NCBI GenBank assembly: GCA_964360445.1
Contig: CAYHWE010000001.1
Coordinates: 221 to 47,411 of the forward strand
Direction: 5' to 3'
From: an uncultured Gammaproteobacteria bacterium
GTDB lineage: Bacteria; Patescibacteriota; Patescibacteriia; Patescibacteriales; JAKAJF01
Length of the DNA stretch: 47,191 nucleotides
A program made the translations under genes and the position numbers. Positions 20,089 through 24,993 of this stretch are shown one piece after another. The number at the start of each line of letters is the position of its first letter. Within the stretch, counting starts at the first letter, position 1. Below the pieces are notes generated by a model that had not been told where the DNA came from, did no database searches, and saw only the letters and a program-made list of their open reading frames with translations.

Positions 20089-21126
20089 ATGAAAAAAATT
20101 TTTATCATTTTAATTTTAATACCAATCACCTCTCTCGGGGTTTATTTTTATTATATAAACACGCCGGCAAATAAGGATGGAGCGGAAGTGAATTTCGCCA
20201 TTGCGAAAGGGGAGGGAGTTAATCAGATAAGCGTTAATCTGAAGGAAGCAGGCTTGATCAAGTCGAAGTTTTTCTTTGAAACTTACGCCTGGCTGGAAAA
20301 AGTAGAGTCAAAATTCAAGACCGGCAGCTATACTTTGAGCCAGAAACAGGACATAAAAGAAATAACTAAAGCATTGATCAGCGGGAAGTCTGGAGAAGAG
20401 CAGACGATGAAAATACTTGAAGGCTGGACTTCGAAAGATGTAGCTGAGTATTTGGAAAAAGAGTCGATTGCGAAATCAGATGAATTTTACAACATGATCG
20501 GCCATCCCCATGTAGATTACAGGAAAAGCAAATTGCCAAAACCGAAAGACTTTTCTTCTGAATTCGGATTCTTAAAAGACAAGCCGGCTCATTACGGCTT
20601 AGAAGGATTTTTATTCCCTGATACTTATCGCATTTTCAAGGGGGCGACTACTGAGGATGTGGTCAGGAAAATGCTTTCTAATTTTGACAAGAAGCTGACG
20701 CCGGAAATGCGCGATGAAATAAAGCGCCAGGGCAAGACGATTTATGATGTTATCATTATGGCTTCAATCGTTGAAAAAGAAGTCAGGACGGAAAAAGATA
20801 TGAAAGTCGTCGCCGGCATATTCTGGGACCGGTTGAAAATCGGCCAGGCTTTCCAATCTGATGCGGGCCTGAGCTATGCTTTGGATGACAATGTTGCGGC
20901 GCATAGCGGCAAGGATCTGGAATTGGATTCGCCTTATAATATGTATAAATATAAGGGCTTGCCGCCGACACCAATTTCAAATTCGGGCGTAGCCGCAATC
21001 AAGGCAGCAATTTATCCGACCTATACTGATTATAATTACTTCCTTAATAAGCCTGATACAGGCGAAACTGTGTTTAGTGTGACTTATGAGGAGCATTTAA
21101 GGAATAAGTATAAGTATTTGAAATAG
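20089..21126 (+). CDS. mltG: Endolytic transglycosylase MltG (YceG family)
   Basis: LEGFLFPDTY, MASIVEKE and SPYN.Y...GLPPTPISN; N-terminal TM. Confidence 0.95.
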   Translation: MKKIFIILILIPITSLGVYFYYINTPANKDGAEVNFAIAKGEGVNQISVNLKEAGLIKSKFFFETYAWLEKVESKFKTGSYTLSQKQDIKEITKALISGKSGEEQTMKILEGWTSKDVAEYLEKESIAKSDEFYNMIGHPHVDYRKSKLPKPKDFSSEFGFLKDKPAHYGLEGFLFPDTYRIFKGATTEDVVRKMLSNFDKKLTPEMRDEIKRQGKTIYDVIIMASIVEKEVRTEKDMKVVAGIFWDRLKIGQAFQSDAGLSYALDDNVAAHSGKDLELDSPYNMYKYKGLPPTPISNSGVAAIKAAIYPTYTDYNYFLNKPDTGETVFSVTYEEHLRNKYKYLK

Positions 21127-21134
21127 AAAAATTA

Positions 21135-21256
21135 AGCCCCCTTTAACAAAGGGGGTGTGGGGGATTTTTCGGTGCCACTATGCTCATAAAGTTTGTACTG
21201 ATTACCACCTACAAATCCCCCGCCCTAAATCGGGCGGCCCCTTTATTAAAGGGGCG
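21135..21256. repeat. Palindromic element of the CCCCTTT-n-AAAGGGG type; a related half-copy lies at ~7069-7102
   Basis: Hairpins ccccctttaacaaaggggg and gcccctttattaaaggggc; inverted ggggattt/aaatcccc. Confidence 0.55.
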
Positions 21257-21310
21257 AGTTTAAGATTGCTTCGCTCCACTCCGTTACGCTCGCAATGACA
21301 AAATTTATAC

Positions 21311-21408
21311 TGTCATCCTAGCGAAAGCGGGGATCCAGGGTCAACTCGCAGGAAGGTGAATTGTTGTTAGAACTTCAAGAAATTGATTTCTAGAATTTTT
21401 ACTAAAGA
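21311..21408 (-). mobile_element. Truncated, inverted copy C of the ~150-bp MITE-like element
   Basis: Reverse complement matches the right arm and interior of copy A (ctagaaat..tt.cttgaa..ccttcctgc..gaccctggatccccgctttcgc). Confidence 0.7.
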
Positions 21409-21536
21409 ACATAAACATCGCTGGCTCCATAGTCCCTTCAGAGTTGTGGAGCCTTTTTGCAATAGTCAGCACTGTGGCTCCATAGTGCTGACGCAACTAT
21501 GGAGCCAGCAGAGGGAGAAAAAGCAGGGGTTGGAAT

Positions 21537-21565
21537 TTGACGTAAAATGACTTTTGTGTTATGCT
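21537..21565 (+). promoter_or_regulatory. Sigma70-like promoter of the DGR target gene
   Basis: TTGACG-17 bp-TATGCT with extended -10 TG. Confidence 0.55.
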
Positions 21566-21636
21566 AATTTAGCAAGAATTAGCTTGCGTTGGCCTGGCAA
21601 ATCCAGGAATAACGATCATTTAAAAGGAGAATTTCG

Positions 21637-22338
21637 ATGACGACAGGGTCGATCACGAAAAAAGTAACGAGCGGACAGGAAAAGCAGTGGGGACGGTTTG
21701 TCGAGGATACAATCTGCGAAGCACGCAAGCAGGTGGCGATTGATAAGGGCGCAATGCAGAGTCTTCTCGGCAACGGCGACAAGGTTAGGGCAGGGATTAT
21801 TGACCTGCTTATTAAACATTCGGCATCCGACGACAGGTTCGGGCTGGTTACAGCCTTTAAGCTCACGGTTCCGAAAGGCTACAGCCATGACACGCAGCTT
21901 GCGATTTTCGCTTCGTTCGCGAAAAACAAGTCCGAAAAGTTCTATTATTACAATGACAATATAACGGACGAAAATTTCGCCAAGGTGACGCAGAAGCTCG
22001 TTCCGGGCAAGACCTACGGGGTCAAGATTTTCCAAATTAAGAGCTATGTAACATCGGAAGACTGCCTGGCATTTCTTGCCTCGCAGAGAGCGATACTCGT
22101 CGGGGCACAGGGTCTTTCCCTAGTCAGACAGCTCAAAAAGGATCAGTTTCCGACGATTGGGAAATGGACGGTCTCTTTCGACGAGAAAGACGCTCTTTGG
22201 GCTGACGGCGACGGTGACCACAGGGTGCCGTACTTGTATCGGTATTCGGACGGCGACTGGGGTTTCGACCTCGGCGGCTTCGAGGGGGACTGGAATGGCG
22301 ACGGCTGTCTTCTTTGCTTCTGCGACTTAAGCGCTTAG
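21637..22338 (+). CDS. DGR target protein (233 aa) with C-terminal variable region; CLec-like fold presumed
   Basis: The last ~45 codons contain the VR; SD AAAGGAG; no signal peptide visible. Confidence 0.92.
   Translation: MTTGSITKKVTSGQEKQWGRFVEDTICEARKQVAIDKGAMQSLLGNGDKVRAGIIDLLIKHSASDDRFGLVTAFKLTVPKGYSHDTQLAIFASFAKNKSEKFYYYNDNITDENFAKVTQKLVPGKTYGVKIFQIKSYVTSEDCLAFLASQRAILVGAQGLSLVRQLKKDQFPTIGKWTVSFDEKDALWADGDGDHRVPYLYRYSDGDWGFDLGGFEGDWNGDGCLLCFCDLSA
22201..22323 (+). repeat. DGR variable repeat (VR)
   Basis: Ungapped 123-bp match to 22661-22783 with 14 mismatches, all opposite TR adenines. Confidence 0.97.
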
Positions 22339-22375
22339 GCGCTTGGCCGCTTAGGTCTTTAGACCTTAGACTCTT

Positions 22376-22410
22376 AGAGCCTCTGCTATATGCAGGGGCT
22401 CTGTTTTTTT
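22376..22410 (+). terminator. Hairpin with T tract after the target gene (terminator and/or DGR target-recognition hairpin)
   Basis: agagcctctgc-tatat-gcaggggctct followed by gttttttt. Confidence 0.7.
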
Positions 22411-22660
22411 ATATAATATTTTTAGATATGGTTAGGATATGCGGCTAAGGCTTCATGCTATCTTATCTTGTAAAGGAATTTTACGAGGAGTTCATCGGGT
22501 AAAACTTTATGAATGAGAGTAATCCTTTATGAAAAAATTAAATAAGTCGGTGCGGTGTGCTAATGAGCATAAAACCTCTAATGATAGACAGGCTCAGGAT
22601 AAAATACAGGGAATGACCGGTGTTGTTCCCGGTGGAAAAGGAAGGCACGCCGTACATACC

Positions 22661-22783
22661 GCTGACGGCGACGGTAACCACAGGGTGCCGAACTTGAATC
22701 GGAATTCGGACGGCGACTGGAATTTCAACCTCGGCAACTTCGAGAAGGACTGGAATGACGACAACTGTCTTCTTTGCTTCTGC
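22661..22783 (+). ncRNA. DGR template repeat (TR), core of the template RNA
   Basis: Adenine-bearing copy of the VR, with 9 AAY codons in the target reading frame. Confidence 0.95.
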
Positions 22784-22802
22784 CACTTATTTGATTCTCT
22801 CG

Positions 22803-23212
22803 CTATTTATTGGCGGGAGTTTTTTCTTGCAAACTCTTTTTCCAACCGCCGAGCATACGGCCGATCTCGTCAAGTGAAACGATGAAATCTCCGTAATTGG
22901 AATGACTGATGATTTTTTGCTCCCAGCTTATTTGGATGAAAAATTTTAGAAGGTCACATTTTCCGGTTGCCTGGGATACGTGTGATAATTTTTCGAATTT
23001 ATCATGAGCAAAAGAGGCTCTGAATATCAACTCGAGAAAAGATAAAAAAGTATCATCAATTCTCGCCCCGATAGAATACCTATCGATACGGTTAAGATTC
23101 GACAGATTTTTATGCCAAATTTGATAAATTTCTTTGGCCCTGACGAGAGCTAAGGGTGATTGTGCTGAAACAGAAGGGGGGGGGGTGTAATATTAATAGA
23201 ATGTTTAAGCAT
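22803..23212 (-). pseudogene. avd: Avd-like accessory variability determinant (four-helix-bundle family), frameshifted relative to ATG 23212 at a C10 tract; possibly phase-variable
   Basis: Frame is open from 23192 to 22803 (...KEIYQIWH...DRYSIGARIDD.FL..LELIF...EIGRMLGGWKK) with no ATG/GTG/TTG before TTG 23030; ATG 23212 joins this frame if the tract is C11 or C8. Confidence 0.8.
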
Positions 23213-24190
23213 AAGTATAGAACAATAATTAAGATTGAAAATCTCATCGAAACTTGGGAATATTTTTTGCGCGGCAAGCGGCACAAAAAAGATGTCGCGA
23301 TTTTCCAAGCCGATTTATCGGCTAATTTGGCGAGTCTTTATTATTCATTGGCGAGTTATTCATATAAACATGGCGGTTATACGGCATTTAACGTGTCTGA
23401 TCCGAAGCCGCGGAATATCCATAAGGCGACAGTGCGCGACCGCGTCCTACATCATCTCATATATAAGGCGCTTTATCCTTATTTTGAGGCTAAATTCATT
23501 TACGATTCTTATTCATGTAGGGAAAATAAGGGCGTTCACCGGGCGCTAGATAGATTCAAGTATCTTGCCGGGAAAGTTTCCAAAAATAATTCCCAAACTT
23601 GTTATGTGTTGAAATGCGATATCAAGAAATTCTTTGCCTCTATTGATCATGATGTTTTGTGTAAGATATTGGAAAGGCACATAGAGGATCGTGACATTCT
23701 ATGGCTGATCAGACAGGTCGTTTCAAGTTTTTATTCAACTAGACAGGGGATCGGGCTGCCTCTTGGAAATCTCACATCGCAATTGTTGGTTAATATCTAC
23801 ATGCATGAGTTTGACATGTTTATAAAGCAAGAGCTCCGTGTTAAATATTATATCAGATACGCTGATGACTTCGTAGTCTTATCTGACAACGAAGAGTATC
23901 TCAGTGACCTTCTGTCGAAGATAAGGAAGTTTTTAGGCGAGAGATTGAAATTAACACTTCATGATCATAAGGTATATATTAAAACTTACAATTCCGGCTT
24001 GGATTTTCTTGGCTGGATTCATTTTCCTTATTATAGGCAATTAAGATCGTCCACTAAGCGTAAGATTGTCAGAAAATTAAAAAATTATCCTAAGAAAGAA
24101 ACGGTTATGTCTTATCGCGGGCTTTTAAGTTATGGCAATACCTATAAATTGAAAAAACGAGTTGGTCTATTTGATCAAGGAAGTGATTAA
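23201..24190 (+). CDS. DGR reverse transcriptase
   Basis: PK.R.I, RDRVLHH, LKCDIKKFF.SIDH, GLPLGNLTSQ, YIRYADDF and DFLG; ATG 23201 preferred over GTG 23156. Confidence 0.97.
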   Translation: MFKHKYRTIIKIENLIETWEYFLRGKRHKKDVAIFQADLSANLASLYYSLASYSYKHGGYTAFNVSDPKPRNIHKATVRDRVLHHLIYKALYPYFEAKFIYDSYSCRENKGVHRALDRFKYLAGKVSKNNSQTCYVLKCDIKKFFASIDHDVLCKILERHIEDRDILWLIRQVVSSFYSTRQGIGLPLGNLTSQLLVNIYMHEFDMFIKQELRVKYYIRYADDFVVLSDNEEYLSDLLSKIRKFLGERLKLTLHDHKVYIKTYNSGLDFLGWIHFPYYRQLRSSTKRKIVRKLKNYPKKETVMSYRGLLSYGNTYKLKKRVGLFDQGSD

Positions 24191-24219
24191 AATTGCTTAA
24201 ATTAGCAATTTTAGGGAAC

Positions 24220-24247
24220 TTGACATATCCTGAAAACCTGTTAATAT
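24220..24247 (+). promoter_or_regulatory. rplJ promoter
   Basis: TTGACA-16 bp-TAATAT with extended -10 TG. Confidence 0.5.
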
Positions 24248-24265
24248 ATATCTATAATCAAATAA

Positions 24266-24350
24266 AGCCATAGACAGTAGGCCTCCAAATAAGCCCTACC
24301 GAGGTGAAAACAATATCTTTTAGAGTTATTGCTCGTGTCTGTGGTTGCCC
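24266..24350 (+). promoter_or_regulatory. Ribosomal protein L10 leader (autoregulatory RNA)
   Basis: AGACAGTAGG...TAA..CCTACCGAGG core directly upstream of rplJ. Confidence 0.8.
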
Positions 24351-24456
24351 CACAGTTTTTTATTTTATACACAAATTAGCACAAATTTAAAACAAATTGA
24401 CACAAATAAATCCGTGTAAATCTGTAAAAAAATCTGTGTAAATATGTTTTATCCAT

Positions 24457-24993
24457 ATGCCAAAGACAAAAGGACAAAAGCAGGCAATATTAGCTGAATT
24501 ATTCGATAAAGTCAGTAAAGCGAAATCAATCGTCTTTACCCAATTTAACGGGTTAGAAGCTAAGGAAAATGAAGAGTTGAGAAAGGAATTGCGTGCTGAA
24601 AACAGCGAATATTATGTAGCAAAAAAGACTTTGCTCGATATCGCTTTGAAGAATTCGAACATCAATGACGTTGATGTAAGGAACTTGCCAGGACAGATCG
24701 CTGCAGTATTCGGATACGGAGATGAAGTTACTCCAGCTAAGATCGTTGATAAATTCGTAGATAAATTCAAGAAAGAAAAGACAAACAAGATCGAATTTGT
24801 CGGCGGTGTATTGGAAAATAAGTTCTTATCAGCTGTAAGCGTCAGTGAATTGGCTAAATTGCCAAGCAAGCAAGAACTTTATGCGAAATTGGTCGGCACG
24901 ATCAACGCTCCGGTTTCCGGCTTCGTAAATGTATTGGCTGGCAATCTGCGCGGTTTAGTGACTGTCTTGAAAGCTATTGAGGGTAAGAAGTAA
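24457..24993 (+). CDS. rplJ: 50S ribosomal protein L10
   Basis: V.KKTL and LAKLPSKQEL.AKLVG..NAP motifs; upstream of rplL. Confidence 0.96.
   Translation: MPKTKGQKQAILAELFDKVSKAKSIVFTQFNGLEAKENEELRKELRAENSEYYVAKKTLLDIALKNSNINDVDVRNLPGQIAAVFGYGDEVTPAKIVDKFVDKFKKEKTNKIEFVGGVLENKFLSAVSVSELAKLPSKQELYAKLVGTINAPVSGFVNVLAGNLRGLVTVLKAIEGKK

Follow-up and report, generated by a model that had tools for sequence, protein, structure and literature searches.

A length-variable poly-C tract in the first codons of avd is a candidate phase switch for a diversity-generating retroelement in Patescibacteria

We analyzed a 47,191-nt stretch of contig CAYHWE010000001.1 (hereafter the window) from an uncultured member of the Patescibacteriota. 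The window contains a complete diversity-generating retroelement (DGR) that is made up of a target gene with a variable repeat (VR), a template repeat (TR), a divergently oriented avd gene, and a reverse transcriptase (RT) gene. The target gene, an open reading frame (ORF) of 233 aa (21637–22338, + strand), matched no Pfam or NCBIfam family and carries the 129-nt VR at its 3' end (22201–22329, +). A VR set in a C-type-lectin or Ig-like ligand-binding fold is among the characteristics of DGR target proteins. Of the 15 positions at which the 129-nt TR (22661–22789, +) differs from VR, 14 are TR adenines, which is the signature of a DGR repeat pair. DGR RTs are defined by an [ILV]GxxxSQ motif together with YxDD; the RT of the window (23201–24190, +; RVT_1, E = 1.5e-26) has LGNLTSQ at residue 188 and YADD at residue 220, and the RTs of its relatives begin at the same methionine. 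Facing it on the opposite strand, avd starts at an ATG (23210–23212, –) that pairs with the CAT (His4) codon of RT, such that the 5' ends of the two genes share 12 nt in head-to-head orientation.

The Avd reading frame on the minus strand (22803–23192) comprises 129 codons and a stop. Its product exceeds the cut-off of the Pfam bAvd family PF22296 (51.3 vs. 40 bits) and falls under that of the NCBIfam Avd model (59.8 vs. 80). AlphaFold2 predicted a four-helix bundle (predicted local distance difference test score, pLDDT, 89.4) with helices at residues 14–30, 35–61, 65–91, and 97–123, preceded by a disordered stretch (residues 1–13) that includes a proline run. A Foldseek search with this model retrieved Bordetella bAvd (4dwl, template modeling score TMt 0.90) and the Avd chain of a DGR ribonucleoprotein (8ub7_B, TMq 0.76). 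With an isoelectric point (pI) of 9.24, the predicted protein is a basic four-helix bundle, as is characteristic of the DGR accessory protein.

Upon inspection of the avd 5' end, we noted that the gene is out of frame as assembled. The minus strand from 23212 reads ATG CTT AAA CAT TCT ATT AAT ATT ACA and then enters an uninterrupted run of ten cytosines (C10, 23185–23176; G10 at 23176–23185 on the + strand), which falls in avd codons 10–12 and is the proposed site of slippage. Read from ATG 23212, the C10 allele encodes a peptide of only 20 residues, MLKHSINITPPPLLFQHNHP (23150–23212, –), and ends at TAG 23152–23150. The Avd frame itself is offset by one base from that of ATG 23212 and has a TAA (23195–23193) directly ahead of it. 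All of these coordinates agree with those in the initial annotation, which had described avd as frame-shifted at this homopolymer. It had also claimed that a C11 or C8 tract would give a continuous protein, and our reading bears this out: when two CCCC words are each read as a single step (equivalent to C8), one continuous 135-residue protein results. The alignment of this read-through product with P0003, a natural homologue that is in frame, starts at Met1 and is gap-free (78% identity over 133 residues); hence ATG 23212 is the genuine avd start and the assembled allele is frame-shifted. The equivalent ATG is the Avd start in relatives that lack the tract. A non-canonical start downstream of the tract had been named as an observation that would overturn the proposal, but an ORF scan of the window found no ATG, GTG, or TTG in the Avd frame until TTG 23030. 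We rejected this TTG as a rescue of the window allele, because initiation there would remove helix 1 and most of helix 2. The ATG of RT (23201) sits 15 nt past G10 on the + strand, from which the initial annotation had concluded that RT is unaffected. The C10 run is thus an uninterrupted mononucleotide repeat of about 7 or more units at the 5' end of a coding region, as in classical contingency loci, and its length determines whether the gene is in frame (20 aa with C10, a 135-aa Avd with the C8 equivalent).

The initial annotation had called for a survey of related DGRs for a poly-C run of variable frame at the avd 5' end. We performed this survey on 117 avd loci: 7 from genome contigs, 30 from a sample of 401 genomes of the Patescibacteria class (73 of which gave an Avd match at an E value of 1e-20 or better), and 80 of 354 metagenome relatives. 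Loci with enough upstream sequence and a mapped Trp26 numbered 110; removal of identical copies left 100, and 99 were classified after one locus without an RT was dropped. A run of C7–C15 occupies the position of the window's tract in 73 of the 99 loci, most often at lengths of 9–11 and with a maximum of 15, and all three reading frames are represented. The ATG is in frame in 16 loci, 26 loci (the window included) need a change of +1C or –2C, and 31 need –1C or +2C. Among the 26 loci that have no such tract, by contrast, the ATG is in frame in 23. The tract was also found in 24 of the 29 non-own Avd loci in the species-level genome sample. RT is divergent from avd in all 109 loci where an RT was found, and it has its own start beyond the tract in the window and in 65 of the 73 tract loci.

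The uninterrupted tract is kept in lineages whose Avd proteins are only 36–81% identical. Amino acid conservation in the Avd frame is continuous from the proline run into helix 1; the residues that join the two are PPPAQAPLVLV-like in the close clade and PPPxxFxxDLPIL-like in the distant clade. Since conservation in this frame runs from the tract into the helix, the tract is coding sequence rather than leader. A separate case is L039, the closest of the 80 metagenome relatives surveyed (Avd 81% identical), which has only C6, an out-of-frame ATG, and a stop codon immediately ahead of the Avd domain; the tract may have decayed here and be locked OFF.

Tract length also differs between near-identical loci. 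We compared six near-identical pairs of tract-bearing loci. In one pair, L019 (C9) and L102 (C10), the tract indel is the sole difference over 1,670 nt. In another, L064 (C9, in frame) and L072 (C8, out of frame), there are two differences over 2,850 nt, one of which is the tract indel. The remaining four pairs have equal tract lengths. At slightly greater distance, the in-frame P0003 is 98% identical to the out-of-frame L079 (C11), while further close pairs of a protein and a locus are P0025 and L054 (97.6% identical) and P0102 and L065 (99.2% identical). Clustering of homologues at 90% protein identity gave the same picture: tract-bearing clusters contain in-frame, alternate-frame, and internally started forms together. 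In cluster 2, for example, two members start MSEH...TPP(P)QAQAPLVLV, five begin in an alternate frame, and five are short calls from an internal start, and clusters 6 and 9 contain PPP, PPPP, or PPPPP forms plus short forms. In three tract-less clusters, none of 23 members is short. Because the clusters mix these forms, and because two short proteins could be equated with surveyed loci (P0110 is L042, P0121 is L056), the homologues of 113–115 aa are gene-caller artefacts of out-of-frame tracts. The relatives thereby show what is typical of contingency loci, namely a repeat whose length differs between near-identical strains (L019/L102, L064/L072, and the mixed N-termini).

We noted that in L072 the TR-proximal repeat copy (2849–2996) is a TR/VR hybrid relative to near-identical L064, and is probably an assembly chimera caused by repeat collapse. 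The pair differs at four T/C sites near TR; on account of the hybrid copy, nothing on a link between tract state and VR diversity was drawn from them.

We next looked at the remainder of the genome (assembly of 901,189 nt, 42.3% GC, 95% complete). Its G/C runs of 10 or more number three, whereas an independent-base model predicts 0.25. The only two that are internal to contigs lie at the 5' ends of the genome's two avd genes, one of which is out of frame (that of the window) and the other in frame. The third run, a G43 at the end of contig C18 (19150–19192), is probably a sequencing artefact. The second DGR, locus L009 on contig C27, has a VR at 928–1047, a TR at 1344–1463, avd at 1482–1871 on the minus strand, and RT at 1806–2873, with a G10 tract at 1843–1852. 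Its avd is in frame through C10 and its Avd begins with MAFNNTTPPPTGL. Judged by reading frame, the genome would therefore hold one OFF allele (window) and one ON allele (L009). Unlike the RT of the window, the L009 RT has its sole canonical start (ATG 1806) upstream of G10 and reads through the tract as WGGGS; since RT and avd both read the tract here, one slip would shift both genes. The codon usage of the genome is also informative. CCC makes up 12% of proline codons, and among the 19 other PPP triplets in ORFs of at least 150 aa none is encoded by CCC throughout, hence the C-run is a DNA-level feature. A search of this 95%-complete genome detected neither MutS_V nor MutL domains; across the class, MutL was found in 36 of the 401 genomes. 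EF-P is present in the genome.

Public sequencing data were consulted as assembled Logan contigs. Sixteen runs from five studies were listed, 15 of them with some part of the window, and four runs from four studies (X1, X2, X3, and X9) were aligned to it. According to the initial annotation, reads uniformly carrying G11 or G8 would have pointed to an assembly error; among the pieces listed for these four runs, the sole contig that bridges the tract (run X2, record 11, 22920–23277) has G10 and 0 differences from the window, although this run possibly derives from the source sample. In X1, X3, and X9, the pieces listed contain no indels and break off at 23110|23182, 23116|23197, and 23004|23179, respectively. 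We considered these gaps as a sign of length heterogeneity and dropped the idea, since they lie too far to the left of the tract.

Around the avd–RT junction, a terminator-like hairpin with a T-run (22797–22819, +), found by a consensus scan only, separates the TR end from the avd stop codon. A short TR transcript could terminate there, as could avd on the other strand; in the former case, RT would require a promoter of its own within or next to avd. The promoter and terminator scan as a whole was at background level (4 promoter hits found vs. 2.7 expected). Rfam and tRNA scans of 21000–24500 returned nothing except an L10 leader (24250–24371, 45.8 bits vs. a gathering score of 44), just downstream of RT and ahead of rplJ/rplL. 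The neighbours of the DGR on its two sides are an mltG-like gene and the L10-L7/L12 operon. The gap ahead of the target gene contains two copies of a 32-nt self-complementary repeat (21422–21453 and 21475–21506, 72% identity) with no tRNA or Rfam match. The TR-(avd)-RT layout with an inverted avd corresponds to the B3 architecture, which is described in passages of PMC5758913 as that of 90% of the DGRs of the Candidate Phyla Radiation (CPR).

Collectively, our results suggest that C10 is probably (at a rough probability of 0.62) a hypermutable simple-sequence repeat that is kept by selection in the first codons of avd and acts as a slipped-strand switch on Avd, and hence on hypermutation, with the window allele in the OFF state. 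Because related ultra-small bacteria keep the run at varying lengths, a built-in random on/off switch is more probable than an error. In the mechanism that we propose, slipped-strand mispairing during replication, in cells without detectable MutS/MutL, would add or remove cytosines. With a C8 or C11 tract, translation from ATG 23212 would continue into the four-helix bundle of Avd (ON), whereas C10, as assembled, would stop translation after 20 codons (OFF). RT would keep its own start beyond the tract while avd toggles. In the Bordetella system, Avd is described as essential and as RT-binding (PMC5758913, in the passages that concern it), hence OFF alleles should silence mutagenic retrohoming. 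If the RT of the window needs Avd in the same way, the tract would gate hypermutation of the target gene randomly and heritably, and a minority of cells would be ON. The initial annotation had proposed that slippage or frameshifting could switch hypermutation on in a subpopulation, and the survey of relatives came out as this proposal predicts. What was observed is a tract that is kept across relatives, in three frames, with one-C differences between near-identical loci, in a genome where MutS/MutL were not found. Switching within the population studied here, a lack of Avd in cells with an OFF allele, and a halt of mutagenesis in this lineage upon loss of Avd are inferred.

Several points weigh against this reading. 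For this organism a single tract length, G10, was seen, in the one run that bridges the tract; among the contig pieces listed for X1, X3, and X9, none bridges it, which at a depth of 2.5–6 says nothing about its length. Assemblies can miscall the length of a homopolymer, and amplified DNA may be the source of some contigs in the comparison. In-frame alleles are fewer than the one third expected from free switching (16/73, two-sided p = 0.046), and the deficit is more pronounced for tracts of C8 or longer (12/68, p = 0.006), although shared phylogeny means that the loci do not count as independent. The shortfall points either to selection for OFF or to a DNA frame that is less important than supposed. 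Many relatives, though not the window, have GTG or TTG in their P-L-V-L-V codons, which could give a nearly full-length Avd. Transcriptional slippage might also occur on a poly-C run of 9 or more, and CCC-C is prone to +1 ribosomal shifts, such that OFF is perhaps leaky. Lastly, the dependence of retrohoming on Avd has been tested in the Bordetella system only.

The points about frame and leakiness lead to an alternative that we consider possible but unlikely. RNA polymerase stutter, or a ribosomal shift on CCC-C and poly-proline, would give some full-length Avd from every allele, at a level set by tract length and frame, and the DNA frame would be largely irrelevant; such recoding is compatible with DNA variation. 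All three frames are populated and the in-frame class is under-represented (16/73), as expected if selection on frame is weak or a low Avd dosage is favoured, and the largest class is the one that needs a +1 ribosomal shift (31 vs. 26 and 16; chi-square p of about 0.09, calculated by hand). The frame of the window could be restored by two quadruplet steps. Nevertheless, the window would need a shift of –1 or +2 rather than the easy +1, and neither the direction of the shift (16 loci in frame, 26 at –1/+2, 31 at +1/–2) nor the spacing of a stimulator is fixed, unlike in known programmed frameshifts. A stable hairpin does lie directly 3' of the tract in one AQAPLVLV-type subclade (e.g. L002, L004, L042, L046, and L092; z of –3.5 to –5.6), but the window lacks it (z = +0.4), as do most loci, z being below –1.5 in 24% of 74. 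With L052, L054, and L111 included, the tract-abutting hairpins of this subclade fall within the first ~30 nt 3' of the tract and have stems that differ in sequence (z of –2.0 to –5.6). Moreover, transcriptional slippage is best documented for A/T runs, and EF-P, which counteracts poly-proline stalling, is encoded in the genome. As neither a fixed frame relation among homologues (73 loci) nor a conserved stimulatory structure at a set distance (present in one subclade only) was found, a canonical programmed frameshift is not supported at the sequence level.

The tract might instead act mainly on the RT strand, where G10 in the RT 5' leader or beside a –10 element would tune RT transcription or translation, the effect on avd being secondary or both genes being tuned. 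The tract always lies between the divergent starts, 4–93 and mostly 10–40 nt upstream of the RT start; in 68% of the 73 loci a T follows the G-run, and the A/T-rich sequence after it has a loose similarity to a –10 hexamer. In 52 of the 73 loci, the RT frame stays open across the tract, and in L009 the canonical RT start lies upstream of G10. We consider such a main role improbable: the distance to the RT start is highly variable, most RTs (65/73) start beyond the tract, promoter hits are at background, and the conservation of the Avd frame across and past the tract marks it as avd coding sequence. That the true tract is C11 or C8 and avd is intact appears very improbable as well. G/C homopolymers of 10 or more are error-prone and three of the four aligned runs listed no bridging piece, but the independent assembly of run X2 repeats G10, with the reservation about its origin given above, and random miscounts cannot explain why 57 of 73 tract loci, drawn from many assemblies, are out of frame when 23 of 26 tract-less loci are in frame. 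A decaying avd pseudogene in a dead DGR would also explain why the gene is out of frame as assembled, but we give this hardly any credence, as the 129-codon Avd frame is otherwise intact, exceeds the Pfam cut-off, and folds confidently; RT, TR, and VR are intact, with 14 of the 15 mismatches at TR adenines; and lineages with Avd proteins that are 36–81% identical conserve an uninterrupted tract.

A slipped-strand switch on Avd and a leaky OFF state can be combined into a broader reading, on which our opinion is evenly balanced. Across Patescibacteria, a selected poly-C tract would serve as a second-order evolvability switch, i.e. a random mutator that gates a programmed mutator. Most natural cells would be Avd OFF, each DGR would toggle independently, and some elements would silence RT and Avd by a single slip, while shifting on CCC-C might let OFF leak and turn the switch into a graded dimmer.

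If the slipped-strand switch on Avd holds true, a conserved, length-unstable repeat in avd would provide DGRs with a simple, heritable, and reversible control, and the cost of hypermutation would be confined to a subpopulation. Of all groups of organisms, Patescibacteria/CPR are described as carrying the most DGRs. Gene callers truncate or misstart such avd genes (the 113–115-aa forms, for example). DGR surveys for which an intact avd is a requirement will report too few CPR elements or misclassify them. The tract state could be used to read out DGR activity in metagenomes. The natural regulation of DGRs is an open question, and is called "an exciting frontier" in the text of a 2026 reconstitution paper (PMC12875486).

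The closest counterparts of the tract are the poly-G/C contingency genes of Campylobacter jejuni, Neisseria, and Haemophilus. There, too, about 8–13 G/C in the 5' coding region toggle the frame by one-base changes, and tract length differs between near-identical strains, as it does among the relatives of the window. Campylobacter is not known to have mismatch repair, which resembles the genome studied here, where MutS/MutL were not found. Those genes differ in that they encode surface or restriction-modification functions, whereas the tract of the window gates a DGR accessory protein, such that one mutational switch would control a second, programmed mutator. A further difference is that the hosts are uncultured groundwater Patescibacteria.

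The DGR itself resembles that of Bordetella phage BPP-1 (bRT-bAvd; 4dwl, 8ub7) in its SQ-type RT, its basic four-helix Avd (TM 0.75–0.90, pI 9.2), and its adenine-specific TR/VR differences. It is distinguished by an avd on the opposite strand, in the order TR-(avd)-RT, and by avd and RT starts that overlap head to head; we know of no homopolymer in the avd of BPP-1. In phasevarions, a simple repeat in a phase-variable Mod methyltransferase gene switches one upstream factor and thereby changes many phenotypes. The tract of the window would similarly act through one upstream factor, but the downstream effect would be new protein sequence variants and not altered expression. Promoter-spacer repeats, such as the poly-C of Bordetella pertussis fim and the divergent promoter repeat of Haemophilus influenzae hif, also offer a parallel in that the repeat can lie between divergent genes; the repeat of the window differs in being inside avd codons, and a role in the RT promoter is only a candidate. 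A full-text literature search, which included neither supplements nor the CPR DGR survey of Paul et al. 2017, found no publication that links avd or DGRs to homopolymer phase variation. The new aspect of the system, relative to all of these, is that a classical contingency repeat sits in the gene for an accessory protein of a system for programmed hypermutation.
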